Numbered from the stretch's first letter, positions 9,845 to 48,269 are shown. The stretch: DNA of 64,000 bases from Acidimicrobiales bacterium (GCA_035540955.1 DATLFP010000009.1:845-64844), one strand, 5' to 3'. Notes: generated by a model from the sequence alone, not told the origin. Numbers and translations: made by a program.

Positions 9845-11626
9845 ATGAGCACGCTGGAAGCCGAGGATGTCGTCTGGGACCTGTCCGACCTGGTGCAGGA
9901 CCGCTCCTTCGACGACCTGCTGGACGACGCTGACCGGTTGCGCGACGAGCTGGCCGCCCTCCGGGGCACGGTCGGCGGGTTCGACACCGATGCCCTCGTC
10001 GACTTCATGCGCCGCCAAGCCGAGCTGAGCGAGCTGCTCGGCCGGGCCGGCTCCTGGGCGTCGCTCCAGTTCGCCGCCGACATGGCCAACCAGGAGCACG
10101 GCGCCCGCGTGCAGCGCTTCCAGGAGCGGGCCACGGCGGTGTCGACGAAGCTCATCTGGTTCGACCTGGAGTGGGCGGCGCTCGACGACGACCACGTCGC
10201 CAAGCTGCTGACCGACGACCGGATCGCCTTCGCCCGTCACTACCTCGAGGACCTCCGCAAGTACCGGCCGTACCTCCTCACCGAGCCCGAGGAGCGCATC
10301 CTCAGCGAGAAGGCGGTGAGCGGTCGCGCCGCGTGGAGCCGGCTGTTCAACGAGCTGACGTCGTCGATCGAGGTCGACCTCGACGGCCGGCCGGCGACGC
10401 TGGAGGAGGCGCTGAGCCGCATCGCATCACCCGACGCCGAGGTGCGGGCGACGGCGGCCGCGGCCGTGACCGACGCGCTGAAGCCCGGCCTCCGCACGCG
10501 CGCGTACGTCTACAACACGCTGATGAGCGACAAGGCGACCGACGACCGCTTGCGCGGGTACCCGTCGTGGATCACGTCGCGCAACCTCAGCAACGAGGCG
10601 TCCGACGAGTCGGTCCAGGCGCTCGTCGACGCCGTGAAGCGCCGCTACGACATCCCCCAGCGGTGGTACGCGCTGAAGGCGCGGGTGATGGGCGTCGAGC
10701 GCATCAAGGACTGGGACCGGGCCGCCAGCCTCGCCACCTCCGACGCCCACATCGCGTGGGACGAGGCCAAGCAGATCGTGCTCGACAGCTACGCGTCGTT
10801 CTCCGAGGAGATGGCGGCCACCGCCCGGCGGTTCTTCGACGACCGGTGGATCGACGCGCCCGCCCGGCCGGGCAAGCGCCCGGGCGCGTTCTGCTCCTAC
10901 ACCGTCCCCTCGGTGCACCCGTACGTGTTCCTCAACTACACGGCACGCCGGCGCGACGTCCTCACCCTCGCCCACGAGCTCGGTCACGGCCTGCACGCCT
11001 ACCTCGCCCGCGAGCAGGGACCGTTCCACCAGGGGACGCCGCTCACGCTGGCCGAGACGGCCTCGGTGTTCGGCGAGACGGTGACCTTCGGCCGGCTGCT
11101 CGAGCAGACGACCGAGCCCAACGAGCGGCTGGCACTGCTGGCCGAGAACATCGAGGGCGCCATCGCGACCGTGTTCCGCCAGACGGCGATGAACCGGTTC
11201 GAGGACGGCTGCCACACCGCCCGGCGGACGGAGGGCGAGCTGTCGGTCGAGCGGTTCGGCGAGATCTGGGCCGAGACCCAGACCGAGATGCTGGGCGACG
11301 CCGTCGAGGTCACCGAGGGCTACCGCACCTGGTGGTCGTACGTGCCGCACTTCATCGGCACGCCGGGCTACGTGTACGCCTACGCCTACGGGCAGCTGCT
11401 GGCGCTGTCGGTGTACGCGCAGTACGAGACCCAGGGCAGCGACTTCGTGCCCCGCTACCTGCACCTGCTCTCCTCCGGCGGCTCCCTGGCGCCCGAGGAG
11501 CTGGGCCGGATCGTGGGCTGCGACCTCGCCGACCCCGGCTTCTGGGACGCCGGGCTCGAGATCGTCGAGCAGCAGCTCGAGCAGGCGGAGACCGCGGCCT
11601 ACGAAGCGGGAAGGATCACCCGCTGA
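9845..11626 (+). CDS. pepF: M3B oligoendopeptidase F family metallopeptidase
   Basis: 593 aa with the zinc motif HELGHGLH and a downstream E, and a PepF-like length and layout. Confidence 0.9.
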   Translation: MSTLEAEDVVWDLSDLVQDRSFDDLLDDADRLRDELAALRGTVGGFDTDALVDFMRRQAELSELLGRAGSWASLQFAADMANQEHGARVQRFQERATAVSTKLIWFDLEWAALDDDHVAKLLTDDRIAFARHYLEDLRKYRPYLLTEPEERILSEKAVSGRAAWSRLFNELTSSIEVDLDGRPATLEEALSRIASPDAEVRATAAAAVTDALKPGLRTRAYVYNTLMSDKATDDRLRGYPSWITSRNLSNEASDESVQALVDAVKRRYDIPQRWYALKARVMGVERIKDWDRAASLATSDAHIAWDEAKQIVLDSYASFSEEMAATARRFFDDRWIDAPARPGKRPGAFCSYTVPSVHPYVFLNYTARRRDVLTLAHELGHGLHAYLAREQGPFHQGTPLTLAETASVFGETVTFGRLLEQTTEPNERLALLAENIEGAIATVFRQTAMNRFEDGCHTARRTEGELSVERFGEIWAETQTEMLGDAVEVTEGYRTWWSYVPHFIGTPGYVYAYAYGQLLALSVYAQYETQGSDFVPRYLHLLSSGGSLAPEELGRIVGCDLADPGFWDAGLEIVEQQLEQAETAAYEAGRITR

Positions 11627-11640
11627 GCACGCTGACCGCG

Positions 11641-12552
11641 GTGGTCGTGCACCGACGGCGACCGGCGGCGTGCGTGCGGACCGTCGCCGCGCTGCGCGAG
11701 CAGGGCGTCGGCACGGTGGTCGTCGTCGACAACGCATCGCCGGCCGAGGACCGCAAGGCCATCCTCGACGCTCATCCCGACGTGGTGCTGCTCGAGAACG
11801 GCGAGAACCTCGGCTTCGGCCCCGCCGCCAACGTGGGGTTCCGGTGGTGGCTCACCCACGACCCGACGTTCTGGGACCGATCGGGGACGGCCGCGCGGAC
11901 TGAACGGTCCCAGAACGCGGGTGGTCGGGAGTGGGTGCTGCTGTGCCCGCACGACGCCGACCCCGCGCCCGGCTGCATCCCCGCGCTCGTCGACGCCGTG
12001 GCCGGGCGCGACGATGCCGGCCTGGCGTGCGCCGAGTACGGCGATCACGAGTGGTCGGGGCGCCCTCACATCGACCACTACTTCGGCTCGGTCCTGGTGC
12101 CGTCGGCGCGGGTGCCCGGATGGGAGTCGTGCCATCACCCGCACGGCACGATGATGCTCGCCCGGCGGGCGTGCCTCGAGGACATCGGGTTGTTCGACGA
12201 GCGCTACTTCGCCTACGGCGAGGAGGCCGATCTCGGGATGCGGGCCCGCGCCGCCGGCTGGGACGTCGGCATCGTCTGGGGGGCCGTCGTGCACAACCCG
12301 GGCATGTCGTCGGAGACCGGTGTCCCCGAGTACCTCATGCTGCGCAACTCCCTGCTGCTCGTGCGCACCTACTGGGGCGGCTACCACGCGTTCATCCGGT
12401 TCCTCATGGCGCTGGCCACGACGGCCCGGGGTGTCCTCGGCGGACGGCGCACGCCGTTCTGGCACCTCAGCGCCCGACTCTGCGCCCTGCGCGACTTCCT
12501 CCGGGGCCGCACCGGACCACCCCCGAGGACGTTCGCCCTCCGCCGCCCCTGA
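11641..12552 (+). CDS. GT2 glycosyltransferase (WbbL/rhamnosyltransferase-like) carrying an in-frame palindromic insert
   Basis: The frame continues from the pepF stop. Motifs are VVVVDNAS, ENLGFGPAAN, FDERYFAYGEEADLGMR. The start is uncertain: GTG 11641, or non-canonical CTG 11623 overlapping the pepF TGA. Confidence 0.8.
   Translation: MVVHRRRPAACVRTVAALREQGVGTVVVVDNASPAEDRKAILDAHPDVVLLENGENLGFGPAANVGFRWWLTHDPTFWDRSGTAARTERSQNAGGREWVLLCPHDADPAPGCIPALVDAVAGRDDAGLACAEYGDHEWSGRPHIDHYFGSVLVPSARVPGWESCHHPHGTMMLARRACLEDIGLFDERYFAYGEEADLGMRARAAGWDVGIVWGAVVHNPGMSSETGVPEYLMLRNSLLLVRTYWGGYHAFIRFLMALATTARGVLGGRRTPFWHLSARLCALRDFLRGRTGPPPRTFALRRP
11867..11917. repeat. palindromic element copy A (51 bp), inside the GT2 CDS
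   Basis: Arms are CGTTCTGGGACCG (11867-11879) and CGGTCCCAGAACG (11905-11917). It belongs to the same family as the copies at 34349 and 47165. Confidence 0.85.
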
Positions 12553-12613: not shown

Positions 12614-13309
12614 TCAGCGCAGGGGGGCGAAGGGGGTCAGCGTGAGGTCGGCGGCGCGGGCGGCGGCGGCGACGGCGCCGTCGCACAGCACCGCCAGCTC
12701 CTGCTCGCGCTCGCGGCCGTACGACAGCGCCGCCGTCCCGCGGCCGGGGTGGCAGGCGATCTCGGTCCAGCCCGGCCCCACGCTGCGGATGACGCCGACC
12801 AGCGCGTCGACCGTGATCCCCTCGGGGTACGGGTCGCCGGTCCCGCTCTGGCCGTAGAACTCGCCGCGGTACACGAAGCCCGGCGTCACCTGGCGCACCG
12901 GGATCCCGAGCCGGCGCCCGGCGTCGCGCAGCAGCCGCCGTGCCGGGCCCTGACGGTGGACGTGCTGGTGCGAGTCGAGGTGGGTCGGCGGGCGGCCGAG
13001 GAGCGCGTCGAACGCGGCCAGCTGGGCGTCGATCTCGGCCGCCACCGCGTCGTCGTCGTCGGTGTCGACGACCGTGTACGCCGGCTCCCACCCTCCGTTG
13101 CCGTGGACCCACTCACCGAGGTCGAGGTGCAGCCCGACGCCGAGCTGCGGGTGGCGCCGGGCCAGGTCGGCGGCCGCCGGCACCGCCTCGGCCCGCACCA
13201 TCAGGCTGGTGCTCGTCACGATGCCACGGACGTACGCCTCGACCACGCCGGCGTTCACCCCGTCGCACAGGCCGAAGTCATCGGCGTTGACGACGACGTG
13301 GCGCGTCAC
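12614..13309 (-). CDS. ChbG/YdjC-family carbohydrate deacetylase
   Basis: GTG start at 13309 (GTGA overlap with the upstream stop). Motifs VNADDFGLCDGVN, TSTSLMV and LDSHQHVH are typical of YdjC-like proteins. Confidence 0.85.
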   Translation of the reverse strand: MTRHVVVNADDFGLCDGVNAGVVEAYVRGIVTSTSLMVRAEAVPAAADLARRHPQLGVGLHLDLGEWVHGNGGWEPAYTVVDTDDDDAVAAEIDAQLAAFDALLGRPPTHLDSHQHVHRQGPARRLLRDAGRRLGIPVRQVTPGFVYRGEFYGQSGTGDPYPEGITVDALVGVIRSVGPGWTEIACHPGRGTAALSYGREREQELAVLCDGAVAAAARAADLTLTPFAPLR

Positions 13310-28393: not shown

Positions 28394-30816
28394 TCCGCTC
28401 CTCGCCGGATGCATGCGGGCAGGGTCACTCGACTGCGGAACCATCCCCAGCCGAGGTCGATGCCGACGAGCGCGAGCGCGGCGGCGCCGAGGGAGGGGAG
28501 GACGACGCCGACGGCCGCCGCCAGCACGGTGGCGACGGCAACCCGCACCCGGCGCACCCGGGGGCGGACGCGGATCTGGACCGACCCGATCGGATGGCCG
28601 CTCGAGACCAGCTCGCCCGCCATCAGCAGCGACAGCGCCACCTCGGCGTCGTGGTCCTCCCACCCGGTCGGGGGCGCCACCCGCATCCCCGTGCGCCGCA
28701 GGTGTTCGATGACGGCGGCGGTGATGCCGGCTCGGGGTCGGTCGGCGGGCAGGAGGACCACGCCGCCGGAACGGCGCTGGGGCGGGCCGGGCAGCCGCTC
28801 GGCGGCCGGGAGATCGCGGCGGGCGAGCGGCGCCTCCCGGGTCCGGCCCCAGGTCCGGACCAGGGGCTGCAGCAGATGGTGAACGGCCACCGCCAGGCGG
28901 AACCGCACTTGACCGGTGACGAGTCGGCGGGGTGGCGTCGCCCGCCACGCGTCGATCCCGCCCAGCAGCGCCAGCCCGACGACGGCCACGAGCGCGGGGA
29001 GGAGCAGCCAACGAGAGAGCAGCCCGAGCGGTGCGGTGGCGAGGGCCCCAGTGGCGACGGGCACGCCGACCTGGTGCGCGACGTCGAGCCCGTGGCCGCC
29101 GCCCCGATACACGCTCTGGTAGGCGGCGTCGCCGTAGATGCCGCGGTAGATGCGGGCCCGCCCGGTCGGCGGCACGAGGGAGTTGTAGATCCGTCCCCGC
29201 CACCGCGCCGTCCCGATCGAGCTGAAGCGATCGGGATGGCGGGCCTCGACCAGCGCCTCGGCCCGGCCGTAGCCCCGCTGCTGACGCAGGTAGCGGCGCA
29301 GCCCCGGACGGCGGTGGTGCCACACGAGGGCGGCGGGGTGGAAGCCGATCGTCCACCTGCGGTCGAGGACCTTCCAGCACAGGTCGACGTCGTCGCCGGC
29401 GGCGGTGTAGATCGGGTCGAAGCCGCCGACCTCCTCGAGCACCTGCTTCCAGAACGCCATGTTGCAGCCGGGGACGTGCTCGGCGCGGTCGTCGGTGGTC
29501 AGGACGTGGACCGGGCCTCCCGGCGACTGCGCCACGACCTGGGCCCCGACCGGGTCGTCGAGCGGCGGCACGTTCGGGCCGCCGGCGCCACCGACGTCGC
29601 GACCGTCGAAGCCCAGCGCGAGGTAGTACGGCCACTCGGGAGTCGGATAGGCGTCGGAATCGAGGTAGGCGACGATCTCGCCGCGCGCGGCGCGGAACCC
29701 CTCGTTGCGGGCGACCGACAGCCCGCCGTGCGGGAGGCGCAGGACCCGGGCTCGGGGGTGGCGCTCGGCGAGCGCGGCGGTGTCGTCGGTCGATCCGTCG
29801 TCGACCACGAGGATGTCGAGGTCGGGGTAGTCGAGCGCGCACGTGTGGCGGAGGCACTCGTCGATGGTCTCGGCCGCGTTGTAGGCGCAGATCACGACGC
29901 TCATCGACGGCCAGTCGTCGTCGAGATCGGCGACGGTCATGGCGTTCCACCGCGCAGCCATGTCGAGCGCCGGTCTCGGCGTGCGGTCGGCGCGGGTGAG
30001 GCCGAAGTTCCACCCCTCCACCGCGTGGTCACCGACCCACCACTCGTCGGTCCACGAGAAGAGGAATGTGCCGGCGACGCCGCGCTCGAGCGCCGTCTCC
30101 AGCTGCCAGTCCACGGCATCGGCCTGGCGGTGCTCGCCCGCCTCCGTCGACCCGGCGTCGAGGCCGAGCTCACCCAGCACCAGGGGCCGGTCGCCGGCGA
30201 GGTTGTGGAGCCGCGTCAGGTACTGGCGGAAGTCGCGGCGGCGCTCGAGGAACAGGTTGAACGTGAGGAAGTCGAGATCGTCGAGCGGCAGGTACTCGGC
30301 GGTCGGGTAGTTGGCGAAGGTGACGAGTCGGTCGGGGTCCTCCTCGCGCACGACGTCGACCAGCTCGCTGATGACGCCGGCGACCTGCTCGGTGCCCATC
30401 CACCGGATGACGTCGGCGGGGATCTCGTTGCCGAGGGAGAGGGCGAACACCTGGTCGGCGCCGGCGAGGTGGCGCGCCGTGTGGCGGACCTCCTCGCGGG
30501 CGTCGCGGACCATGCGGCGCACGGCGCGGCGGGAGGAGCCGACGAGGTAGCGCCAGTCGGGCCAGAAGACGCCGGCGAACACTCGCAGGTTCCAGTCGGC
30601 GGCGACCTCGAGGAGGTCGTCGGGGGGCGGGGTGTAGGTGCGCACGACGGTGAAGCCCGCCTCGTTCATCGCCGCCATGTCGAGCTTGAGCTGCTGGCGC
30701 TCCGGGAACCGCGCTCCGTCGGGGTCGCGGGGACGGAAGGTGCCGTAGCCGACGCCGCGGACGGGGAAGCGCTCGCCGCCCTGCTCGAACTGCTTGCCAT
30801 CGACGCGGATCGGCAT
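28390..30816 (-). CDS. GH clan-A-like TIM-barrel domain fused to a synthase-like GT2 domain and a C-terminal membrane region
   Basis: ATG 30816, preceded by GAGGAGGAGCGAGG. The N-terminus has LSLGNEIP (acid/base NE) and VLGELGLD. The middle is GT2 (VVICAYNAAETI, VVDDGSTD, LDSDAY, GCNMAF, RQQRGYG resembling Q-x-x-R-W). The C-terminus has several hydrophobic helices. Confidence 0.8.
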   Translation of the reverse strand: MPIRVDGKQFEQGGERFPVRGVGYGTFRPRDPDGARFPERQQLKLDMAAMNEAGFTVVRTYTPPPDDLLEVAADWNLRVFAGVFWPDWRYLVGSSRRAVRRMVRDAREEVRHTARHLAGADQVFALSLGNEIPADVIRWMGTEQVAGVISELVDVVREEDPDRLVTFANYPTAEYLPLDDLDFLTFNLFLERRRDFRQYLTRLHNLAGDRPLVLGELGLDAGSTEAGEHRQADAVDWQLETALERGVAGTFLFSWTDEWWVGDHAVEGWNFGLTRADRTPRPALDMAARWNAMTVADLDDDWPSMSVVICAYNAAETIDECLRHTCALDYPDLDILVVDDGSTDDTAALAERHPRARVLRLPHGGLSVARNEGFRAARGEIVAYLDSDAYPTPEWPYYLALGFDGRDVGGAGGPNVPPLDDPVGAQVVAQSPGGPVHVLTTDDRAEHVPGCNMAFWKQVLEEVGGFDPIYTAAGDDVDLCWKVLDRRWTIGFHPAALVWHHRRPGLRRYLRQQRGYGRAEALVEARHPDRFSSIGTARWRGRIYNSLVPPTGRARIYRGIYGDAAYQSVYRGGGHGLDVAHQVGVPVATGALATAPLGLLSRWLLLPALVAVVGLALLGGIDAWRATPPRRLVTGQVRFRLAVAVHHLLQPLVRTWGRTREAPLARRDLPAAERLPGPPQRRSGGVVLLPADRPRAGITAAVIEHLRRTGMRVAPPTGWEDHDAEVALSLLMAGELVSSGHPIGSVQIRVRPRVRRVRVAVATVLAAAVGVVLPSLGAAALALVGIDLGWGWFRSRVTLPACIRRGAE

Positions 30817-30862
30817 GCGGTCGCCTCGCTCCTCCTCGGTGGTCGCGCTCGCCCTCCGGGCT

Positions 30863-30878
30863 GTCACGTGACCGTCAC
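30863..30878. promoter_or_regulatory. palindrome GTCACGTGAC plus an adjacent CGTCAC half-site in the leader of the glycan operon
   Basis: A perfect 10-bp palindrome lies 47 nt upstream of the ATG at 30816. Function unknown. Confidence 0.2.
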
Positions 30879-31200
30879 ACTTCGGTCCCGGGGTGCGGCT
30901 CCGGGTTCGGGCGAGCACCTTCGTACCCCCGCGATCGCCGGGAAATCGGGCCGGATCGCGCCAGACCGCGTCGGGGGCGCCATCCACGGTGCACACCAAG
31001 CATGTTACGGAATCATGACGAAACCCGCCACAGAGGAGAAGGCGGAGGGTCGCCAAGCCGCCGCGTCCATGCTGCGGTGAACGCCGTGACCACCGGTGAG
31101 GTTGCGATCTGCGCTCGAGATGCGGTCCGGACGCTCGGTCAGACGGGTCGAGCGCGCTGGTCGTGCCCGCCGATCACGGGGTTCGATGACCGCAGGACCG

Positions 31201-31229
31201 GTCGAGCGGGGAACGCCCCGCCGCTCGAC
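31201..31229 (-). terminator. candidate intrinsic terminator hairpin after the nitroreductase gene
   Basis: GTCGAGCGGGG-aacg-CCCC(gcc)GCTCGAC, 11 bp with a 3-nt bulge. It lies 21 nt past the stop at 31251. No U-tract is present, which is common in high-GC actinobacteria. Confidence 0.4.
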
Positions 31230-31250
31230 GCCGCACCCGCGGCGAGCGCG

Positions 31251-31823
31251 TCACAGGAGATCGGTGATGAGCCCGTCGAGGTCGGGGTCGCGGCGGGGCT
31301 TGCTGGTCCCCGGCGGGATGGTGCCGAGGTAGAGGAAGCCCACGATGGCGTCCTTCTCCCGCAGGCCGAGCGCCGCCTTCACCCGGTGGTCATCGACCGG
31401 CGAACCCGTCCGCCACATCGAGCCGTAGCCGAGGGCGGTGGCGGCGACGAGCGCGTTCTGGGCGGCGGCGACGGCGGCGTCGCGCTGCTCGACGAACGGG
31501 ATCTTCTCGTGCTCCTGGTCGACCGCTGACACCACGATCACGAGCGGGGCCCGGCCCAGCTTGGTGCGCTCCTTCTCGGCTCGGGCCGGCTCCGGCTCCC
31601 GCCCGGTCTCGCGGCACCGCGCCACGTACGCCTGCTCGAGCACCGAGCCGAACGCCGTCTGGGCATCGCCGTCGAGGACGGTGAAGCGGAACGGGCGCAG
31701 CTCGCCGTGGTCGGGGGCGGCGGCCGCCGCCCGCAGGATCGTGACCACGTCGGCGTCCGACGGCGCCGGCGGTGCCAGCCGGCCGATGGAGCGCCGGTTG
31801 AAGATGGCATCGAGCGCGTCCAT
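31251..31823 (-). CDS. nitroreductase family protein
   Basis: 190 aa with the N-terminal RRSIGRL motif, PDHG..RP.RF and a conserved C-terminal segment. Confidence 0.85.
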   Translation of the reverse strand: MDALDAIFNRRSIGRLAPPAPSDADVVTILRAAAAAPDHGELRPFRFTVLDGDAQTAFGSVLEQAYVARCRETGREPEPARAEKERTKLGRAPLVIVVSAVDQEHEKIPFVEQRDAAVAAAQNALVAATALGYGSMWRTGSPVDDHRVKAALGLREKDAIVGFLYLGTIPPGTSKPRRDPDLDGLITDLL

Positions 31824-31830
31824 CAGGACC

Positions 31831-32454
31831 TCACCAGCCGCGCTCGATCCACTCGTCGAGGTGCGGTCGCTCGGTGCCCACCGTGGTGTCGGCGCCGTGG
31901 CCGGGCATCACGATCGTCTCCGGTGGGAGGACGAACAGCTTGCGATCGATCTGCTCGATGATCTGCTTGAACCGGTTCGGGTCCTTCTCGGTGTTGCCGG
32001 CGCCGCCGGGGAAGAGCGTGTCGCCGCTGAAGAGGACGGGCTGGTCGACGAGCTTGAAGCACATCGAGCCGGGCGTGTGCCCGGGCGTGTGGATCGTGTG
32101 GAGGCGGAGCCGGCCGACCTCGATGATCGAATCGTCCTCGAGGATGTCGTCGTAGCTCGGCAGCATGCCGGCGTCGTCGGCGGTGACCGCCACCCGGTAG
32201 CCGGCGTCGCGGACGGCGGGCACCGCCTGGATGTGGTCCCAGTGGCCGTGGGTCTCGAGCACCGACCGCACGCCCAGCCGCTCGCAGAGGTCGAGCAGCT
32301 TCTCGTGCTCGTTGGCGGCGTCGAGGAGCACGGCCTCACCGGTCTGCGTGCACCGCAGGACGAACACGTTGTTCTCGAACGGACCGACCACCACCTTGTG
32401 GATCTCGGCGCCGTCGCCCTGCCAGTGCAAGGTGCTCCTGCTCGCTGCGCTCAT
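31831..32454 (-). CDS. MBL-fold metallo-hydrolase (glyoxalase II-like)
   Basis: 207 aa with the THGHWDH metal motif, HTPGHTPGS and GDTLF. Its ATG overlaps the vapC stop (ATGA). Confidence 0.85.
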   Translation of the reverse strand: MSAASRSTLHWQGDGAEIHKVVVGPFENNVFVLRCTQTGEAVLLDAANEHEKLLDLCERLGVRSVLETHGHWDHIQAVPAVRDAGYRVAVTADDAGMLPSYDDILEDDSIIEVGRLRLHTIHTPGHTPGSMCFKLVDQPVLFSGDTLFPGGAGNTEKDPNRFKQIIEQIDRKLFVLPPETIVMPGHGADTTVGTERPHLDEWIERGW

Positions 32455-32870
32455 GGCTCAGAGGCTAGAGGGGAGACGACCTGCAGCCCGAGGGCGAGCG
32501 CCCCGGGGATCTGGTGGCGGTCGAAGGTGAGGTAGGAGACGGGTCGGGGGAGCCGGTCGGCTGCCGCGAGGTGCACGGCGTCGACGGTGCGCAGGCCGAA
32601 CTCCACGCCGATCTCGGTGGCCCGGGCCAGGCACCGGTCGTCGACCGGCACGACGTTGAACGCGTCCCAGTCGTCGCGGAAGCTCCGCCACAGGTCGCGG
32701 GCCTGGCGGGGCCCCGAGGCGACGCGGTGGAGCACGAGCATCGCCTCGGCCCGGCAGAGCTCCGACGCGCACCAGAGGCGGTCGTCGGCCATGGCCTCGA
32801 GCACGAGGTCGCGCCCCGGCTCGTGGAGGTAGCGCTTCACGAGCGCCGAGGCATCGACCGCGAGGGTCAC
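32451..32870 (-). CDS. vapC: PIN-domain toxin (VapC-type)
   Basis: 139 aa from GTG 32870 (GTGA overlap with the antitoxin stop). It has LAVDASALVK (first acidic residue) and the TVDAVHLAAA and TFD segments typical of PIN. Confidence 0.8.
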   Translation of the reverse strand: MTLAVDASALVKRYLHEPGRDLVLEAMADDRLWCASELCRAEAMLVLHRVASGPRQARDLWRSFRDDWDAFNVVPVDDRCLARATEIGVEFGLRTVDAVHLAAADRLPRPVSYLTFDRHQIPGALALGLQVVSPLASEP

Positions 32871-33142
32871 CGGCTGCCGCGGATGTCGTCGAGGATCCAG
32901 TCGGAGCGAGCGTCGACGGGGGCGTCCTCGGCGGCGGGGACCTCGGGGGCGGTGCGCCGGGCGGGCCGCACGTGGCCGGCGGCGATCAGGTCCTCGAGGG
33001 TCGGGGCTCCGACCGGTTCGATGGGCCCGAGCTGGGCGACGGGGTGGCCGTCGACGGTCACCACGATGCGCTCGCCGGCGCCGGCCCGTCGCACCACGGC
33101 GGCGACGTCGTTCCTGAGCTCCCTGATCCCGACCCGTAGCAC
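32867..33142 (-). CDS. Phd/YefM-type antitoxin
   Basis: 91 aa from GTG 33142. VGIRELRNDVAAVVRRAGAGERIVVTVDGHPVAQL is typical of the prevent-host-death family. The track ORF start at 33328 is an upstream extension. Confidence 0.7.
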   Translation of the reverse strand: MLRVGIRELRNDVAAVVRRAGAGERIVVTVDGHPVAQLGPIEPVGAPTLEDLIAAGHVRPARRTAPEVPAAEDAPVDARSDWILDDIRGSR

Positions 33143-33150
33143 AGGTGTAC

Positions 33151-33156
33151 ACAGTA
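33151..33156 (-). promoter_or_regulatory. candidate -10 box TACTGT upstream of the antitoxin GTG, overlapping the palindrome GTGTACAC
   Basis: The minus strand reads TACTGT-gtacacct-GTG. The 8-bp palindrome GTGTACAC (33145-33152) sits between the -10 box and the start, a typical position for TA autoregulation. Confidence 0.35.
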
Positions 33157-33221
33157 GCGGTGGCGAGGACCGGCTCGGCGCCGTACAGTCCCGCCGTCCG
33201 CACGGAACCACGGGAGACCCC

Positions 33222-34337
33222 ATGAACTTCGCCTTCACCGAGGAGCAGGAAGAGCTCCGCAAGACCGTCCGCCAGTTCCTCGAGAGCAAGTCGCCCGAGG
33301 CCGAGGTGCGTCGCCTGATGGAGACCACCGAGGGCTACGACGACGCCGTCTGGAAGCAGATGGGCGAGCAGCTGGGCCTGCAGGGTCTGGCCATCCCCGA
33401 GGAGTACGGCGGCTCCGGCTACAGCTGGGTCGAGCTCGGCATCATCCTCGAGGAGCAGGGCCGCCGCCTCCTGTGCGCCCCGTACTTCTCGACGGTGGTG
33501 CTCGCCGCCAACGCCCTGCTGCTCAGCGGCGACGACGCCGCCAAGAAGGAGCACCTCCCGGGCATCGCGTCGGGCGAGACCATCGCCACCCTCGCGTTCA
33601 CCGAGAGCAACGGCCGGTGGGACGAGGAGGGCATCACCCTCCAGGCGTCGGGCAGCGGTTCCGACGCCACCCTCACCGGCGAGAAGATGTTCGTGCTCGA
33701 CGGGCACATCGCCGACCTGATCATCGTGGCCGCCAAGGGCGGTTCGGGCACGAGCCTCTACGCGGTGGCCGGCGACGCCGCCGGTCTCACGAAGACCGCG
33801 CTGTCGACGATGGACCAGACCCGCAAGCAGGCCAAGCTCGAGTTCAAGGACACCCCGGCCAAGCTCATCGGCACCGAGGGTCAGGGCTGGGCCACGCTCG
33901 AGAAGGTCCTCGACCTCGCCGCCGTCGGCCTCGCCGCCGAGCAGGTGGGCGGCGCCCAGCTCGTGCTCGAGATGGCGGTCCAGTACGCGAAGGACCGCAT
34001 CCAGTTCGGCCGGCCGATCGGCTCGTTCCAGGCCATCAAGCACAAGTGCGCCGACATGCTCCTCGAGGTCGAGTCGGCCAAGAGCGCGTCGTACTACGCC
34101 TCGTGGTGCGCGGCGGAGATGAACGACGAGCTGCCCTCGGTCGCCTCGCTCGCCAAGGCCTACTGCTCCGAGGCCTACTTCCACGCCGCCGCCGAGAACA
34201 TCCAGATCCACGGCGGCATCGGCTTCACCTGGGAGCACCCGGCCCACCTCTACTTCAAGCGGGCCAAGTCCTCCGAGCTGCTGTTCGGCGACCCGACCTA
34301 CCACCGCGAGCTCCTCGCGCAGCGGATCGGGATCTAG
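33222..34337 (+). CDS. acyl-CoA dehydrogenase
   Basis: 371 aa from ATG 33222 (GGGAG upstream, TACAGT at 33184). It has the ACAD N/M/C layout and the C-terminal IHGGIGFTWEHPAHLYFKRAK. Confidence 0.9.
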   Translation: MNFAFTEEQEELRKTVRQFLESKSPEAEVRRLMETTEGYDDAVWKQMGEQLGLQGLAIPEEYGGSGYSWVELGIILEEQGRRLLCAPYFSTVVLAANALLLSGDDAAKKEHLPGIASGETIATLAFTESNGRWDEEGITLQASGSGSDATLTGEKMFVLDGHIADLIIVAAKGGSGTSLYAVAGDAAGLTKTALSTMDQTRKQAKLEFKDTPAKLIGTEGQGWATLEKVLDLAAVGLAAEQVGGAQLVLEMAVQYAKDRIQFGRPIGSFQAIKHKCADMLLEVESAKSASYYASWCAAEMNDELPSVASLAKAYCSEAYFHAAAENIQIHGGIGFTWEHPAHLYFKRAKSSELLFGDPTYHRELLAQRIGI

Positions 34338-34348
34338 CCCACCACCTC

Positions 34349-34400
34349 CGTTCTGGGACCGATCGGGTACGGCATCGCGGCCCGATCGGTCCCAGAATCG
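34349..34400. repeat. palindromic element copy B (52 bp), intergenic
   Basis: CGTTCTGGGACCGATCGGG ... CCCGATCGGTCCCAGAATCG, arms of 19-20 nt with one mismatch. It lies 12 nt after the ACAD stop. Confidence 0.85.
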
Positions 34401-34405
34401 CGTTC

Positions 34406-34804
34406 ATGGTCATCGTCTTCGTGGTGCTCATCGCGGTCCTGATCTTCGTCATCGCCGCCGTCGCCGTCGGGCGGGAGACGAGCCGGCTCGCCGCGCAGCC
34501 GCCCCGCCCGGTCTTCGACATGGACGAGGCCGTCGAGTGGATCGCCGATCGCCTCCCGCCCGAGGTGACCGCCGAGCTCAGCCACGACGACGTCCGCCAG
34601 ATCCTGCAGTGGAGCCTCGACCAGCTGGCGGTGCGCCCCGACGACGAGGTCCTCGTGGTCGACGACGAGGCGCTCGCCTACGTGCAGGTCCGCGCCCGCG
34701 AGGCCGGGCGCGACTGGACCGAGTCCCAGATCCAGCACGTGCTCGACGTGCAGCTGGCCTACCTGCAGGCGATCGGCGCCGCCGGCGCCGAGCGCGAGAT
34801 CTGA
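34406..34804 (+). CDS. hypothetical N-terminally membrane-anchored protein
   Basis: 132 aa from ATG 34406. It has one hydrophobic helix (VIVFVVLIAVLIFVIAAVAV) followed by an acidic soluble region. Third codon positions are G/C-rich. Confidence 0.55.
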   Translation: MVIVFVVLIAVLIFVIAAVAVGRETSRLAAQPPRPVFDMDEAVEWIADRLPPEVTAELSHDDVRQILQWSLDQLAVRPDDEVLVVDDEALAYVQVRAREAGRDWTESQIQHVLDVQLAYLQAIGAAGAEREI

Positions 34805-34823
34805 CGAGCTCGGATCGACCTCC

Positions 34824-34866
34824 CTTGTGGCGGTTCCCTTCGCCTGACGAAGGGAACTGCCACAAG
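34824..34866 (+). terminator. 19-bp stem hairpin 20 nt after the 34406..34804 stop
   Basis: CTTGTGGCGGTTCCCTTCG-cctga-CGAAGGGAACTGCCACAAG. One G.U position, no U-tract. Confidence 0.45.
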
Positions 34867-34889
34867 ACCGCGGCGCCGAGCGCTACGCT

Positions 34890-35057
34890 TTCCGGCACCA
34901 GAGAAAGGAGGTGGTCCAACTGCAACCAAGTTCGAGGACCCTGGAGGTGGTTGGCCGCTAGTCGGCCGCCGGACCACCTGGCGAGTTCACGCCAACCACC
35001 CTCTTTCGAGCGGCCGGGAGTGGTCCCCCTGGCACCAACGCGAGATCGAGAAGACCG
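34890..35057. other. structured non-coding region (candidate sRNA or leader) with SD-like and anti-SD-like segments
   Basis: GAAAGGAGGTGGT (34903-15) is complementary to ACCACCCTCTTTC (34995-35007). The pair encloses AGGTGG..GGCCG-ctagt-CGGCC..CCACCT. No convincing ORF is present. Confidence 0.3.
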
Positions 35058-35060
35058 GTA

Positions 35061-35086
35061 CCGGGGAGCCCTGTGGGGCTCCCCGG
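35061..35086 (+). terminator. perfect 11-bp GC hairpin followed by TT
   Basis: CCGGGGAGCCC-tgtg-GGGCTCCCCGG-TTCG. Confidence 0.5.
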
Positions 35087-35157
35087 TTCGCGTCCCGGCT
35101 ACCGTGCCGCCCGAGCGAGCACGGGACGGGCCCGGGCTGAGCACAGGAGTGGACGTC

Positions 35158-35376
35158 GTGGCACGACCGAAGCAGTTCGAGCACTTCCGGTACGTCGGAG
35201 ACAAGCGGAACCAGCGGGTGCACGACCTCGACAACGCCACCGAGGCGTGCGCCATCGACGAGCTCATGGCGGCCGAGACCTTCCTCGCGTTCGGCCCCGA
35301 CACGCTGGTCGAGGCCGCAAACCGTTGCTACCGGCCGTGCCGCCACTGCGTCACCGCCGGCGATGCCGCGGCGTGA
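35158..35376 (+). CDS. small protein with an Ada-like metal-binding motif (Y-R-P-C-x-x-C)
   Basis: 72 aa from GTG 35158, with AGGAG 8 nt upstream. The pattern F.Y.....VH....C...(20)...A..CYRPCRHC resembles the Ada N-terminal Zn-binding-like fold. G/C-rich third positions. Confidence 0.5.
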   Translation: MARPKQFEHFRYVGDKRNQRVHDLDNATEACAIDELMAAETFLAFGPDTLVEAANRCYRPCRHCVTAGDAAA

Positions 35377-35415
35377 TCGCGCCGTCGCGCCGCCGCTTCC
35401 TCGCCGGCACCCGGG

Positions 35416-36186
35416 TCAGATCTTCGCCGCCGCCCGGAACGCCCTGACGACCGCCTCGTCGCCGAAGATCTCGACGTCCCCGATCGGGTCGCGGCCCCAC
35501 ACCTGCAGGAGCAGGTCGCGGGCGGGACCCCGCACTGCGGCGTCGCCCTTCGCGTGACCCCGCGCCACGTCGACCCGGTCGGCGTGCATGGTGAGGGTCC
35601 ACTCGCCGTCGGCGTCGGTGGCGTGCAGGTGCAGCGACTCGCCGTTGCCGCCGATCGGCTGACCGGTCGCCGCCGGGATGAACACGTCGCACATCTCGTC
35701 GACGCCGTCGACGGCGAAGTCGGCGTCGACGTCGGTCACCTCGCCGACCGCCAGCTCGGCGTCGATCCGGTGGACGAGCGTCTCCTGCGAGATGCGCCGG
35801 AAGTACCACTGCGCGGTGTCGCCCTCGGCCGACGCCCACGTCCAGCGGGGCGCGTCGGGGTCGACCTGCGACATCGTGGCGACGGCGGCGTCGACCCCGG
35901 CCTGGAACCAGTCGGCGAGGTCCTGACCCGGCGCCGGGCCGACCTCGTGGACCGCGGGATCGGGAAACGTGCCGGCGTTGTGCCGGGCCGCCTCGGTCTG
36001 CCACCGGTGGACCTTGCCGGTGTGCTCGACCAGGTCCGCCACCGTCCAGCCGGGGCAGGTGGGGACCGCTGCGGTCGGGGCGCGGCGGGCGATCTCGGCG
36101 ATCCGCCGGCCGTCGCGCTCGAGGTGGGCGAGGTACGTGTCGCGGTGCACGCCGAGCAGCGTGGCAGATGACCAATGTCCTGGCAT
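35416..36186 (-). CDS. mycothiol-dependent maleylpyruvate isomerase-like (DinB/MDMPI_N) family protein
   Basis: 256 aa. The N-terminus has PTCPGWTVADLVEHTGKVHRW, typical of TIGR03083-type proteins. Confidence 0.8.
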   Translation of the reverse strand: MPGHWSSATLLGVHRDTYLAHLERDGRRIAEIARRAPTAAVPTCPGWTVADLVEHTGKVHRWQTEAARHNAGTFPDPAVHEVGPAPGQDLADWFQAGVDAAVATMSQVDPDAPRWTWASAEGDTAQWYFRRISQETLVHRIDAELAVGEVTDVDADFAVDGVDEMCDVFIPAATGQPIGGNGESLHLHATDADGEWTLTMHADRVDVARGHAKGDAAVRGPARDLLLQVWGRDPIGDVEIFGDEAVVRAFRAAAKI

Positions 36187-36202
36187 TCGCGATTGCCGTC
36201 GG

Positions 36203-36208
36203 TACAGT
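36203..36208 (+). promoter_or_regulatory. candidate -10 box TACAGT, 7 nt upstream of ATG 36216 (leaderless-type)
   Basis: The sequence reads TACAGT-cgaagcg-ATG. Confidence 0.35.
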
Positions 36209-36215
36209 CGAAGCG

Positions 36216-36992
36216 ATGGCCGACCCGATGGCGGACGTGCTCGATTCGGGCGGTGTGCGGCTGGCCGCCCACCTCGCTCGCCCGTCGGCCGACCGGGCCG
36301 CCCCCGGACGTCCCGGACTCGTGGTGTGCCATGGCTTCCCGTCGGGTCCGAAGTCGGCGAAGGCCAGCGGCCAGACCTACCCGGAGCTCGCCGAGCGGCT
36401 CGCGGCCGACGCCGGGTGGACCGTGCTCACCTTCAACTTCCGGGGCACGGGCGACTCCGAGGGCGACTTCTCCCTCGGCGGCTGGCTCGACGACCTGCGT
36501 GCCGCCGTCGACCACCTGCTGGCGCGAGGCGACATCGACGGGGTGTGGCTGGCCGGTGCCAGCACCGGCGGCTCGCTGGCGATCTGCGCCGCCGGCGAAG
36601 ACGAGCGCGTGCGCGGTGTGGCCGCGCTCTCGGCGCGTGCCGACTTCGACGACTGGGCGTCGCACCCGCGCCGCTTCCTCGAGCACGCGCGAGAGATCGG
36701 CGTCATCCGCAACAAGGCGTTCCCGAGCGACGTCGACGGCTGGATCGCCGAGCTGCGGGAGACCCGCCCGCTCGCCCTGGCCGCCAAGCTCGCGCCCCGT
36801 CCGCTGCTCCTGGTGCAGGGGGGCGACGACGACGTCGTGCCCGCTGTCGACGCCCGCGCCCTCGCCGACTGCCACGGCACGGCCGAGCTGCGCATCATCG
36901 CCGGCGCGGGGCATCGTCTGCGCCACGACCCCCGGGCGATCGCCGTGCTCCTCGGGTGGCTCGAGCGCCAGGCCGCGACCACCAGCGACTGA
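36216..36992 (+). CDS. alpha/beta-fold hydrolase
   Basis: It has the nucleophile-elbow-like GASTGGS, a VCHGFP segment and GDDDVVP...GAGH. The preferred start is ATG 36216. The track start at 36168 would overlap the divergent gene. Confidence 0.8.
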   Translation: MADPMADVLDSGGVRLAAHLARPSADRAAPGRPGLVVCHGFPSGPKSAKASGQTYPELAERLAADAGWTVLTFNFRGTGDSEGDFSLGGWLDDLRAAVDHLLARGDIDGVWLAGASTGGSLAICAAGEDERVRGVAALSARADFDDWASHPRRFLEHAREIGVIRNKAFPSDVDGWIAELRETRPLALAAKLAPRPLLLVQGGDDDVVPAVDARALADCHGTAELRIIAGAGHRLRHDPRAIAVLLGWLERQAATTSD

Positions 36993-37063
36993 TCGGTCCC
37001 GGGCGGGCGCCTCGGCCCCCTGCTCCTGGAGGTGCCGACCTCCCGGCTCGGGCATGACCGATC

Positions 37064-38299
37064 ATGGATCCCGTGGAAGGTCGCCGCGCCTTCGAAGACC
37101 GCCTGGCCGGGGCGCTGGGCCAGGCGCGCCGCGACGGGTCGCTCGTCGCCGTCATCGTCGCCGAGCTGATGGGCGTGCTCGTCGTGAGCTCGCGCTTCGG
37201 CCCTGACGCGGGAGCAGCCGTCCTCCGGGAGGCGACGAGCCGCCTCGAGGGTGCGGTGCACGGCTACGCCGACTTCGTGGCCCGGGTCGGCGAGACCGAC
37301 TACGCGGTCCTCCTCGCCAGCGTCGACGATCCATCGGTGGCCGAGCGGGTCATGAGCCGCATCACCGAAGCCTTCGAGACGCCGTTCGTGGTCGACGGCG
37401 AGCCGATCACGATGGCCATGGCGCTGGGCATGAACCTCGGGCCTGGTCGGCGCCGCAGCGAGGGCGACCTGCTGTGGCGGTCGGCGGAGGAGAGCGGGCG
37501 GGCACGGTCCGCGGTGCTGCAGCGGATGCTCGCCGACGTGCGGGGCGCGGCGACCAACCTCGACGAGGTCGCCCAGGTGTTCGCCGACGCCGGCGTCGCC
37601 CAGTTCGGGTTGGAGGCCTGCGAGTTCGAGGTCGATGGCCGGTCGTGGAGCTCCCCGGCGGCGACGCCGTCCCGTCCCGCCGACGCCGAGCTGCCGCTGC
37701 GCAGCGAGGGACGCCAGATCGGGACGTTCCGGTGGTGGGGTCCGGTCGGCGACGAGCAGGCGATGCGGGGGGTGCAGGCGCTGCTCGACCACGTGGCGGC
37801 GTCGCTCGACCGGGCTCAGGCGATCGACGCCACCGACCTCCGTGCTCGCACCGACTCGCTCACCGGTCTCCTCAACCGCGAGGGCCTCGCTCGGGAGCTG
37901 GCCGAGCTCGACGCCCCCTTCGCGCTCGCGATCATCGACCTCGACCACTTCAAGCAGGTGAACGACGCGCACGGTCACGAGGTCGGCGACCTCGTGCTCG
38001 CCGACCTCGCCGCCCTCCTGAAGCGGGGCCGCACCGCCGACCTCATTGCCCGCTGGGGCGGGGAGGAGATCGTCCTGGTGATGCCCGACACGACAGTCGA
38101 CGGCGCCGTCGCGCGCGTGCAGCGGCTGCTCGAGGAGGCGAAGTCCTTCGTGCGGATCGCCGAGGTCGGTCCGATCACCTTCTCGGCGGGCGTCACCGCC
38201 AGCCGTCAGAACGAGCTGTTCGCCGATGCGGTCCGTCGCGCCGACGAGGCGATGTACCGGGCCAAGCGTGCTGGCCGGGCGCGGGTCGAGGTCGGCTGA
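37064..38299 (+). CDS. diguanylate cyclase (degenerate GGDEF-like N-domain, sensor region, active GGDEF domain)
   Basis: 411 aa. The C-terminus reads LTGLLNREGL...IDLDHFKQVNDAHGH...RTAD-LIARW-GGEEI (I-site plus GGEEx). Confidence 0.85.
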   Translation: MDPVEGRRAFEDRLAGALGQARRDGSLVAVIVAELMGVLVVSSRFGPDAGAAVLREATSRLEGAVHGYADFVARVGETDYAVLLASVDDPSVAERVMSRITEAFETPFVVDGEPITMAMALGMNLGPGRRRSEGDLLWRSAEESGRARSAVLQRMLADVRGAATNLDEVAQVFADAGVAQFGLEACEFEVDGRSWSSPAATPSRPADAELPLRSEGRQIGTFRWWGPVGDEQAMRGVQALLDHVAASLDRAQAIDATDLRARTDSLTGLLNREGLARELAELDAPFALAIIDLDHFKQVNDAHGHEVGDLVLADLAALLKRGRTADLIARWGGEEIVLVMPDTTVDGAVARVQRLLEEAKSFVRIAEVGPITFSAGVTASRQNELFADAVRRADEAMYRAKRAGRARVEVG

Positions 38300-38300
38300 T

Positions 38301-38873
38301 TCAGCCCTTGGCCTGTGCCTTCATCATCTTCTTGAACGCCCGGACCTCTTCGAGGTGGGCAGGGGAGTCGGCGTCGGCCACCGACCGTCGCGTTGCGTCG
38401 GAGAACGGTGCCGCCGCCTCCTCCCAACCAGCGGGCTTCACCCCCAACCGCTTGGCGAGGACGGCAGTGAAGATCTTCGCCTTGTCGGGGCCGAAGCCGG
38501 GCAGGGCCTTCAAGCGGGCGACGAGATCGGCGCCGTCGGCCGCCTCTCGCCAGATCCTCGACGCGTCACCCCCGTAGGTCTCGGCGATCTCGGCGCACAG
38601 CGCGTGCGCCCGCTTGGCCATCGACGCCGGATACCGGTGCAGCGCGGGCTTCTCGACGAACACCTGGATGACGTCGTCGGGATCCATGGCGGCGATCTTG
38701 GCCGGGTCGAGCTGGCCGCCGAGCCGCTCCTTCAGCAGCGACGGCGCGTGGAACGCCCACTCCATCGGCACCTGCTGGTCGAGGAGCATCCCCAGCAGGA
38801 GCGCGAACGGGTCCTCGGCGAGGAGCCGGTCGGCGACGGTGTCTCCGGTGATCCAGAACGTCTTGGCAGCCAC
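38301..38873 (-). CDS. HhH-GPD-type base-excision DNA repair family protein
   Basis: 190 aa. LKALPGFGPDKAKIFTAVL (helix-hairpin-helix) and the overall layout match the actinobacterial HhH-GPD-like family. Confidence 0.75.
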   Translation of the reverse strand: MAAKTFWITGDTVADRLLAEDPFALLLGMLLDQQVPMEWAFHAPSLLKERLGGQLDPAKIAAMDPDDVIQVFVEKPALHRYPASMAKRAHALCAEIAETYGGDASRIWREAADGADLVARLKALPGFGPDKAKIFTAVLAKRLGVKPAGWEEAAAPFSDATRRSVADADSPAHLEEVRAFKKMMKAQAKG

Positions 38874-38897
38874 GGCCGAAGGCTACGCGCGCGACGG

Positions 38898-41603: not shown

Positions 41604-41661
41604 GCGACCATGTTCGCATGCTGCTCGCGCTTTCCGACACGGACCCGGTGATGCGAGCCCG

Positions 41662-42672
41662 ATGACCGCCGTCTACACGGATGGGGCGTGCAGCGGGAAC
41701 CCCGGCCCGGGTGGGTGGGCGTGGGCGATCGAGGACGGCCCGTACGCGAGCGGCTACGACGAGCGGACAACCAACCAGCGCATGGAGGTGACCGCCGCGT
41801 TCGAGGCGGTGCGGGCCAACGACGGACCGCTCGAGGTGGTGAGCGACTCCACCTACGTCGTGAACTGCTTCCGCGACTCGTGGTGGGTGGGGTGGCGCAA
41901 GCGCGGGTGGCGCAACACCCAACGCCAGCCCGTCGCCAACCGCGACCTTTGGGAGCCGTTCGTCGAGCTCGTCCTGGAGCGCGGCGACGTCACGTTCCGG
42001 TGGGTGAAGGGCCACGCCGGGGATCCGATGAACGACCTCGTCGACCGGCTGGCCGTGCAGGCCGTCACCGACGGCACCGGGCGCCGGGGAACCGGGAGGC
42101 CCGACGACCTCGGCGCCGCCGACGCCCCACCGAAGCAGGCGGCGGGCGGGGCCACCGGCGGCCCCGCCCTGCCCGACGGCTACCGCGTCGTCATCACCGG
42201 GCTCCGCCCGCCGGGCCTCGGCGGCTACGACCCGAACCTGACCTGGGAGTCGGTGCGGTCGTCGCTCGCGGAGGCCCTCGCCTACCTCGCCACCGAGCAC
42301 GACGACCTGCTCGTGGTCACCGGCATGGGTCTCGGGACCGAGCAGCTGGGCGCCGAGGCGGCCATCGACGCCGGCGTGCCGTTCGTGGCGGTTCCCGCTC
42401 ACCGCGGGTTCGACGAGGTGTGGCCGGCGCGCTCCCGGGAGCGCTACCGGTCCCTCGTCGACCAGGCCATCGCCGAAGTGGTGTTCGACGATCGCGTGCC
42501 CACCTCCAAGCAGCAGGCCGGCGCGATGGCGTCACGCCGCGACGCGTGGCTGGCCCGCAACGCCGCCGAGGCGATCGTCGTGCACGACGGAGAGGACGAG
42601 CACGTCGAGCGGCGCCTGGCGGCGCTCACGGTGCAGCTGGGGGACGACAACGTGCTGCAGCTGCGGCCATGA
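41662..42672 (+). CDS. rnhA: RNase HI fused to a YpsA/DUF1273-like SLOG domain
   Basis: ATG 41662. The N-terminus has YTDGACSGNPGPGGWAW, TNQRMEV, SDSTYV and KGHAGDPMNDLVDRLA (DEDD residues). The C-terminal ~180 aa have VVITGLRPPGLGGYD, VVTGMGLGTEQLGAEAAIDAGVPF and SRRDAWLARNA, resembling the SLOG/YpsA family. Confidence 0.8.
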   Translation: MTAVYTDGACSGNPGPGGWAWAIEDGPYASGYDERTTNQRMEVTAAFEAVRANDGPLEVVSDSTYVVNCFRDSWWVGWRKRGWRNTQRQPVANRDLWEPFVELVLERGDVTFRWVKGHAGDPMNDLVDRLAVQAVTDGTGRRGTGRPDDLGAADAPPKQAAGGATGGPALPDGYRVVITGLRPPGLGGYDPNLTWESVRSSLAEALAYLATEHDDLLVVTGMGLGTEQLGAEAAIDAGVPFVAVPAHRGFDEVWPARSRERYRSLVDQAIAEVVFDDRVPTSKQQAGAMASRRDAWLARNAAEAIVVHDGEDEHVERRLAALTVQLGDDNVLQLRP

Positions 42673-42692
42673 GGTCATGAGGGCGTGAGGGC

Positions 42693-45982: not shown

Positions 45983-46057
45983 CTTCCACCGGTGCCGCTC
46001 GGCGGGCCGGCCGGTGGGCGAAGCGCCCGCGGCGGCATCGCCGCGCCCAGGACCGCC

Positions 46058-46453
46058 TCAGCTGACGCCGAGGGCCTGACGCCAGAGGTGGGTGTCGGTG
46101 TAGGTGCGGAAGCCGGTGATCTTGCCGTCCGATCCGAAGTGCCACACGTGCACGAAGTCGGCGTTGAGCTCGACGCCGGTCTCCTTGCCGGTGCCCTTGT
46201 AGACCCCGATGCCGCACACGACGTCGCCGCCGTCGGCGATCTCGTTGGGCACCACGGCAAAGCCATCGAGCATGCTCATGACCGCCCCAAAGATGTTCTC
46301 GGCAACGGCCTGGGGCCCGACCTGGTTCTCGAAGGGCAGTGACTCGGGCTCCTGCCAGTCGATCTTGTCGTCCATCGCTCCGAGCACGGTCGCGACGTCG
46401 CCGGTGCCGAACGCCTCGTAGAGCTTGCGGATCGTGTCTGCGTTGCTTCCCAT
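46058..46453 (-). CDS. SnoaL-like / NTF2-fold protein
   Basis: 131 aa. The N-terminal IRKLYEAFGTGDVATVLGAM and the alpha+beta cone pattern are typical of the family. Confidence 0.7.
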   Translation of the reverse strand: MGSNADTIRKLYEAFGTGDVATVLGAMDDKIDWQEPESLPFENQVGPQAVAENIFGAVMSMLDGFAVVPNEIADGGDVVCGIGVYKGTGKETGVELNADFVHVWHFGSDGKITGFRTYTDTHLWRQALGVS

Positions 46454-47163: not shown

Positions 47164-47164
47164 C

Positions 47165-47222
47165 CGCCGTTCTGGGACCGATTGGGCCGGACCGGCGTAC
47201 CGGATCGGTCCCAGAACGGCGG
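47165..47222. repeat. palindromic element copy C (58 bp), intergenic
   Basis: CCGCCGTTCTGGGACCGAT ... ATCGGTCCCAGAACGGCGG, perfect 19-nt arms. It begins 2 nt after the stop at 47163. Confidence 0.9.
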
Positions 47223-47299
47223 AGGGGAGGGTCGGAAGCCCGTCGTCGGGCCCGGAACTGATCGGGCATCGGCCGCCGCGACCGCCATGATGGGCGACC

Positions 47300-48268: not shown

Positions 48269-48269
48269 A

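Follow-up and report, generated by a model that had tools for sequence, protein, structure and literature searches.

The window analysed here is a stretch of 64,000 nucleotides from an Acidimicrobiales metagenome-assembled genome (MAG). It contains a GT2 glycosyltransferase gene whose synteny with the upstream pepF (M3 oligoendopeptidase) is conserved in relatives. The encoded protein is identical to HVM51630.1 and belongs to the GT2 family with a GT-A fold, as seen from its Pfam matches (Glycos_transf_2 PF00535, PF13641 and PF13632; Glyco_tranf_2_3, Glyco_trans_2_3), its predicted fold and its conserved residues. Inside the reading frame lies the palindrome cgttctgggaccgatcggggacggccgcgcggactgaacggtcccagaacg, whose 13-nt arms (CGTTCTGGGACCG and CGGTCCCAGAACG) are perfect complements and whose codons (11869-11919, frame 1 of the GT2 ORF) encode the peptide FWDRSGTAARTERSQNA. 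A preliminary description of this DNA had placed a 51-bp palindrome in frame within the GT2 ORF, and inspection of 11867-11917 bears this out, the arms being complementary and the ORF intact. Coordinates of the features discussed are collected in Table 1.

Table 1. The GT2 gene and the copies of the palindromic unit in the 64,000-nucleotide window.
Feature	Position	Strand	Remarks
GT2 glycosyltransferase gene	11641..12552	+	303 aa as annotated (HVM51630.1); repeat-encoded loop residues 77-93
Conserved 51-bp palindromic unit	11867..11917		In frame within the GT2 gene; CG + 47-nt core + CG
Extended hairpin, GT2 copy	11855..11929		Outer flanks CCCACGACCCGA / CGGGTGGTCGGG also pair; from RNA fold and filled/empty site comparison
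Second copy of the unit	34349..34399		Intergenic, between an acyl-CoA dehydrogenase gene and a small membrane-protein ORF
Third copy of the unit	47168..47218		Intergenic, after the stop at 47163; EamA transporter gene downstream

Five occurrences of the arm CGTTCTGGGACCG were counted in the window over both strands (11867+, 11905-, 34349+, 47168+ and 47206-). Dinucleotide-preserving shuffles gave a mean of 0.30 occurrences, and a count of five was reached in 0 of 100. An exhaustive scan of the window with a covariance model of the repeat returned three copies scoring 66-75 bits (67.5 bits for the one in the GT2 gene) and no other strong copy. RNA folding gave -44 to -52 kcal/mol for the three (z -5.7 to -6.7). 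The GT2 copy folds at -52 kcal/mol (z = -5.95), its pairing reaching out to about 11855-11929.

Both further copies, almost identical in sequence to the first, are intergenic and lie just 3' of stop codons, in agreement with the earlier claim. The second starts 11 nt past the acyl-CoA dehydrogenase stop (34337) and ends 6 nt short of an ATG (34406). The third starts 4 nt past its stop and lies about 80 nt upstream of the EamA gene; its perfect palindrome spans 47164-47222. The start of 47165 first given for this copy is 3 nt off unless an extra CCG is counted, the copy itself being real.

The next-best matches in the window score 25 and 18 bits and belong to different hairpins (63649-63702 and 49312-49370, respectively), the latter just past a TGA. 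Both begin with CCGTT and end with AACG(A/G), as the 51-bp unit does at its base. They could be distant cousins of the family, or hairpin bases may generally look like this in the genome. A separate long palindrome at 51118-51190, also just past a TGA, has 27-nt arms (89% complementary) with 19 nt between them; its sequence is unrelated to that of the 51-bp family, and it may represent another hairpin family.

Members of the repeat family and their placement

Species-representative (GTDB) genomes, JGI metagenome contigs and viral contigs were scanned with the two-arm pattern TTCTGGGACCG-N15-35-CGGTCCCAGAA. The metagenome contigs contained 24 loci with both arms exact, 13 of them from sample Ga0247717, and the GTDB genomes contained two, both in MAGs (the source MAG is absent from that set). 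These loci agree with the proposal in the preliminary description that the palindrome is a dispersed element and not ordinary coding sequence. The viral contigs held no match to the two-arm pattern and thus gave no sign of a phage origin. Once same-locus duplicates across samples were removed, about 18 distinct loci remained in the window and related metagenome contigs; copy counts given here cover the window and the contigs fetched. Repeat density reaches three copies per 64 kb in the window and two per 21 kb in contig L031.

The unit has the consensus CGTTCTGGGACCGATCGGGTAC-N7-CGGCCCGATCGGTCCCAGAACG, with a stem of 19-23 bp and a hypervariable loop. In every one of the ~18 loci a distance of exactly 25 nt separates the 11-nt arms, the exactness of the arms themselves being partly imposed by the search pattern. 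An alignment of 19 copies, with consensus CCnCCGTTCTGGGACCGATCGGGTACG-n-C-n-GGCCGGCCCGATCGGTCCCAGAACGGCGG, shows conservation also at positions that the pattern leaves free (the flanking CG, ATCGGG and CCCGAT), while the central ~7 nt differs in almost every copy. Each arm contains the self-complementary octamer CCGATCGG. The centre of the repeat is asymmetric, with GGGTAC on one side and GGCCC on the other, so that each copy has an orientation.

Across the alignment, 23 pairs have 87% of their cells paired; sliding the partners by 1-3 columns lowers this to 26-51%. Covariation counts are modest because most stem positions are invariant. Hairpin z-scores of the tested copies range from -4.3 to -6.7, with a free loop of about 11-13 nt per copy. 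Pairing beyond the 51-nt unit is weakly enriched, which supports 51 bp as the right boundary of the conserved unit; the GT2 copy, the copy in L003 and the 47 kb copy extend further. The covariance model also picked up L011 1962-2020 as a copy and, in a related MAG (GCA_036275955.1; L029 11993-12038), a diverged cousin that reads CGTTCTCGGTACCGGAACCG-N-CGGTTCCGGTACCGAGAACG and fills the spacer between Phd antitoxin and PIN toxin genes. In another relative (L027) this spacer position measures only 31 nt. Both arms of the cousin have changed together, suggesting that pairing is what the lineages preserve. The whole window had no match in Rfam at gathering thresholds, and the literature that we searched yielded no account of such a repeat from Acidimicrobiia. 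The family is real, and it appears to be lineage-specific and undescribed.

Genes around the copies were called by third-position GC content. At 13 of the 18 loci the repeat starts 4-30 nt past a stop codon, in the spacers of tandem or convergent genes. Orientation relative to the gene was four one way and six the other among the copies that could be scored. Elsewhere, the copy in L004 separates two divergently transcribed genes (one for DUF4260, the other an unassigned ORF), that in L006/L025 lies 124 nt beyond the end of an ORF, and that in L009 provides the final 11 codons and the stop codon of a DUF2867/NmrA-like protein (...PVLGPIGPTSRT*). Two copies are internal and in frame, namely the GT2 copy and L011 1962-2020. 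Since the genome is mostly coding and yet 13 of 18 copies are extragenic, either gene ends are targeted or intragenic copies are strongly purged.

No U-tract follows any copy, the tails of the intergenic copies in the window being TCGCGTTCAT and CGGCGGAGGG, and a terminator scan of 30000-49999 flags neither of these two. Hairpins of this kind are not canonical intrinsic terminators. As mycobacterial RNA polymerase does not terminate without a U-tract (PMC3993855), a plain terminator role is unlikely. In the same 20-kb interval (30000-49999) terminator-like sites consisting of a hairpin and a T-run number 3, against 3.3 in shuffles, and so show no excess; no matches to a sigma-70-type promoter consensus were found there either. 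The organism seems to do without standard terminator and promoter signals of both kinds.

We also inspected the boundaries and neighbours of the copies. A CG, itself palindromic, flanks 15 of 17 copies on either side; no target-site duplication of at least 3 nt was found at any boundary offset of 0-15 nt. Eight flanking proteins that were scanned (metabolic, transport or unassigned) gave no Pfam match to a transposase.

The copy in the GT2 gene and the state of its host

The closest orthologues are 78-80% identical to the GT2 protein. Between the WWL and WVLLCPHDA motifs they mostly have 4-7 residues (aligned orthologues of 75-80% identity), compared with 26 here, and the expectation that orthologues lack the repeat-encoded segment is borne out by those at ~75-80% identity. 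At the DNA level the empty site of the orthologues reads CTC ACG AAC ACC GAC GAC GAG TGG and the filled site CTC ACC CAC GAC CCG A[51 nt]CG GGT GGT CGG GAG TGG. The site is also empty in the related MAG GCA_036275955.1 (L029). Judged by this comparison, the in-frame copy in the GT2 gene is a genuine insertion.

The net gain over the orthologues is 60 nt (20 codons) and not 51. The additional GGTGGTCGG (Gly-Gly-Arg) is absent from the orthologues and forms part of the extended hairpin; together with the left flank, with which it pairs, it resembles the outer arms, C-rich and G-rich, seen in other copies. With the empty site known from relatives of ~78% identity, the inserted segment may have measured 51, 60 or about 66 nt. 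The idea that a length of exactly 51 bp preserves the frame stands in so far as the 51-bp unit is in frame; the length itself reflects no special design, because any intragenic copy that survives must add a multiple of three.

The insert falls in a loop that joins the NLGFG helix to the DXD-type strand. That this loop varies in length, as first proposed, is seen both in the orthologues and in the structural model, and it would lie on the surface of the enzyme. In four orthologues (P0002, P0015, P0022 and P0028) this loop contains 7-12 inserted residues of unrelated sequence, for example RGVGGPH and RGAGGPR, so it tolerates extra length. The DNA encoding the insert of P0002 (L030, gene 1999-2874) contains a small palindrome of its own, GTGGGG-GGT-CCCCAC.

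We next consider whether the gene that received the repeat is still functional. The ORF is open over 303 codons and every invariant family column is kept in the protein, so that the gene is not truncated at the insert, an outcome that the preliminary description had named as one that would count against it. The structure with the insert was modelled by AlphaFold2 with an orthologue alignment (mean pLDDT 87, pTM 0.86): the GT-A fold is intact, and the sole segment below pLDDT 50, residues 82-94, falls in the insert, with helix 59-72 before it and strand 98-103 after it. The best structural matches in Foldseek are the GT-A enzymes GlfT2 and ppGalNAc-T (E ~1e-12).

The insert is identical in all six alleles of this species, the members of a 90% cluster, which come from at least five independent assemblies; an assembly artefact is thereby ruled out. 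Among five alleles there are 11 variable sites, 7 synonymous and 4 non-synonymous (pN/pS 0.20), one of the synonymous changes lying within the loop of the repeat. Small as this sample of 11 sites is, it points to purifying selection on the gene since the insertion.

The 5' end of the gene has changed as well. Comparison of the window (11620-11650) with the corresponding regions of two relatives (L027 9990-10010 and L029 8185-8200) indicates that the ancestral ATG overlapping the pepF stop, TGATG in the relatives, has been lost, the sequence here being TGAGCACG. GTC-to-GTG changes give candidate GTG starts at 11641 and 11647, with another GTG at 11674, and gene callers are split between 11641 (303 aa) and 11674 (292 aa). 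Loss of the ancestral start could mean reduced expression of the GT2 gene.

These changes raise the possibility that the gene is inactivated or decaying, with the hairpin blocking transcription or translation and the ORF intact in appearance only. A hairpin of the stability given above within the ORF, the lost ATG with its disputed replacement and the break of the Pfam GT2 match at the insert would all fit such a state. Set against them are the long open frame with its invariant residues, the low pN/pS among alleles that carry the insert, the new in-frame GTG codons and the confidently modelled fold, and intrinsic termination within the gene is unlikely because a U-tract is lacking (PMC3993855). 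We regard inactivation as decidedly unlikely; the GT2 gene seems functional and the insert tolerated.

Two further irregularities were noted close to the locus. The opening ~25 nt of contig L010 (positions 1-25; sample Ga0247700) repeat, in reverse complement, what lies immediately 5' of GT2 and have the look of a fold-back assembly artefact at the contig end. In a minus-strand YdjC-like gene, about 49 nt near the 3' end (12617-12665) are present in the window, L034 and L035 and deleted in L010, with an altered C-terminus of the YdjC-like protein as the result.

The second internal copy (L011 1962-2020; 45 bits) lies in a minus-strand ORF, 1564-2559, whose product has a signal peptide, then a conserved ...CGNDDDFEDDNEGWCG domain and a hypervariable linker, and finally an LAVTG sorting signal with a membrane helix and RRR tail behind it. 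The large family to which this ORF belongs includes members annotated as LPXTG-motif cell wall-anchored proteins. Third-position GC is of the coding type on both sides of the repeat and in the same frame, which shows the copy to be in frame. Its translation, RSGTDRAARPHAIGPET, uses a different frame from that of the GT2 copy and falls within the linker. With closest homologues only ~49% identical and the region being a hypervariable linker, this copy can be regarded as a putative insertion.

In-frame copies of this sort might suggest a family that resembles the Rickettsia palindromic elements (RPEs) either in its adaptation to coding sequence or in being recruited there time and again; the loop in GT2 and the linker segment of the wall protein would then be functional additions. 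Besides the two internal copies and the one supplying a C-terminus among ~18 loci, such recruitment could draw on the openness of the repeat: frame a (FWDRSG...DRSQN) is free of stops in 38 of 38 translations of copies and frame b (RSGTDR...IGPRT) in 37 of 38, the third frame (VLGPIG...SVPER) being interrupted by stops five times. Such openness is, however, about what is expected of sequence with ~70% GC. The identity of the insert peptide across six alleles is likewise uninformative, the alleles being ~99% identical overall. Random placement in a mostly coding genome would put most copies inside genes, whereas 13 of 18 copies lie outside them just past stops; both in-frame copies sit in permissive regions, a variable loop and a hypervariable linker, and the insert is the one low-confidence part of the GT2 model. 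Functional recruitment of this kind is therefore very doubtful.

Relation to known repeats and a likely origin

The family shares with REP/REPIN elements its short GC-rich palindromes, dispersed in both orientations and mostly extragenic at gene 3' ends (here 13 of 18 loci), with a conserved stem and a variable loop; REPs also have occasional in-frame copies inside genes (PMC3733652). It differs from these elements, which are mobilised by RAYT tyrosine transposases, in size (20-40 bp for REPs against 51 bp with a 19-23 bp stem) and in its ends, the GTAG/CGTC terminal tag being absent and the alignment consensus ending in CCG-TTCTGG and CCAGAA-CGG. It is found in an actinobacterium of the Acidimicrobiales, and this group goes unmentioned in the text of a 2013 survey.

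A second resemblance is to TRIT, the Tuberculosis Rho-independent terminator motif, of which the passages in PMC3152330 describing it give 147 palindromic, sequence-conserved hairpins near stop codons of M. tuberculosis. The comparison made here is by these described properties (palindromic, sequence-conserved, near the stop codon). As described in the same passages (PMC3152330), TRIT too is a bidirectional palindromic hairpin in a high-GC actinobacterium, conserved in sequence and structure, with many dispersed copies tied to stop codons and without a canonical U-tract. In those passages the motif is reported from Mycobacterium only and is centred at about -8, overlapping the stop, in contrast to the 4-30 nt past it seen here, and mid-gene in-frame copies are not mentioned (PMC3152330). 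The earlier suggestion that high-GC actinobacteria have no described equivalent is unsupported or overstated in view of these hairpins at Mycobacterium gene ends.

MITEs with terminator-like hairpins, such as Correia/NEMIS, SPRITE and ERIC, are similarly small, non-coding, dispersed inverted repeats beside genes, but they measure 70-300 bp, carry a target-site duplication and consist of a non-palindromic core bounded by terminal inverted repeats. In the present family the inverted repeat takes up the entire 51 bp, and a duplication of at least 3 nt was not found. In-frame insertions are on record outside Rickettsia, for GTAG/CGTC REPs in several bacteria and for MITEs generally (PMC3733652, PMC10969869), and some MITEs yield in-frame fusions (PMC10969869).

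With RPEs, the comparison made at the outset, the GT2 copy has in common an in-frame palindrome at a fold-compatible position of a conserved enzyme, in a host gene that is apparently functional. RPEs, unlike this family, are about 100-150 bp long, come from an AT-rich obligate intracellular alphaproteobacterium and have a large intragenic share (44 insertions in R. conorii, PMC10969869), compared with about 2 of 18 here; an Rfam match at the gathering threshold is also lacking. The analogy thus applies to the outcome, while colonisation of reading frames is exceptional in this family, with two internal copies against the 13 at gene ends. On these comparisons the repeat may be described as working like a REP-type or TRIT-type element, and it is assigned to no named family. 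An attC site, an SOS box, parS and dif were set aside, the polarity or spacing of the conserved bases being a misfit.

Taken together, we consider it likely (probability about 0.7) that the 51-bp palindrome belongs to a REP-like family of hairpin repeats and that the GT2 gene holds a rare in-frame copy, tolerated in a permissive loop. Each copy forms a long inverted repeat, its stem of 19-23 bp fixed in sequence and its loop free to vary. From the likeness to REP elements and TRIT we infer a role at RNA 3' ends, where the hairpin may act as a barrier that stabilises the transcript or aids factor-dependent termination. Copying would occur in trans, most plausibly by a hairpin- or single-strand-dependent transposition, and selection would normally remove the copies that land inside genes. 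The GT2 copy would then be a rare survivor, adding a multiple of three nucleotides and no stop to a loop of variable length, and its 17-20 extra residues probably form a neutral or slightly deleterious passenger loop and not a functional module.

A bolder version of this reading sees RAYT-independent long-stem hairpins of the Acidimicrobiales that mark gene 3' ends in a genome devoid of canonical terminators and at the same time serve as a recurrent source of peptides, an actinobacterial counterpart of RPEs. With at least two of the three registers open, such a family would give rise repeatedly to new loops, linkers and C-termini. We hold this version to be unlikely.

The combination of invariant stems with loops that all differ leaves room for selection by a stem-binding protein, which fits at least as well as recent copying. 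That the repeat is chiefly a site for a sequence-specific dsDNA- or RNA-binding protein (a global regulator, nucleoid protein or termination factor), spread by function and acting as a regulatory roadblock in GT2, would account for the nearly invariant stem, its octamers and the lack of orientation bias, but is highly improbable, as convergent selection is not expected to produce ~40 conserved nucleotides at unrelated loci and copying would still be required, the exact 11-nt arms are partly a product of the search, the cousin keeps its pairing with another arm sequence (structure over sequence), and no candidate binding protein is known.

The REP-like reading describes a phenomenon of a known kind and leaves the current view of such repeats unchanged. 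It adds a small-repeat family, previously undescribed, from a poorly studied and uncultured actinobacterial order. The openness of the repeat in several frames is a warning for gene callers, as it inflates spurious ORFs, and the family could help to flag gene 3' ends where genomes are without canonical terminators. The GT2 gene itself offers a clean natural case in which a conserved enzyme has taken up about 20 repeat-encoded loop residues under what appears to be purifying selection.
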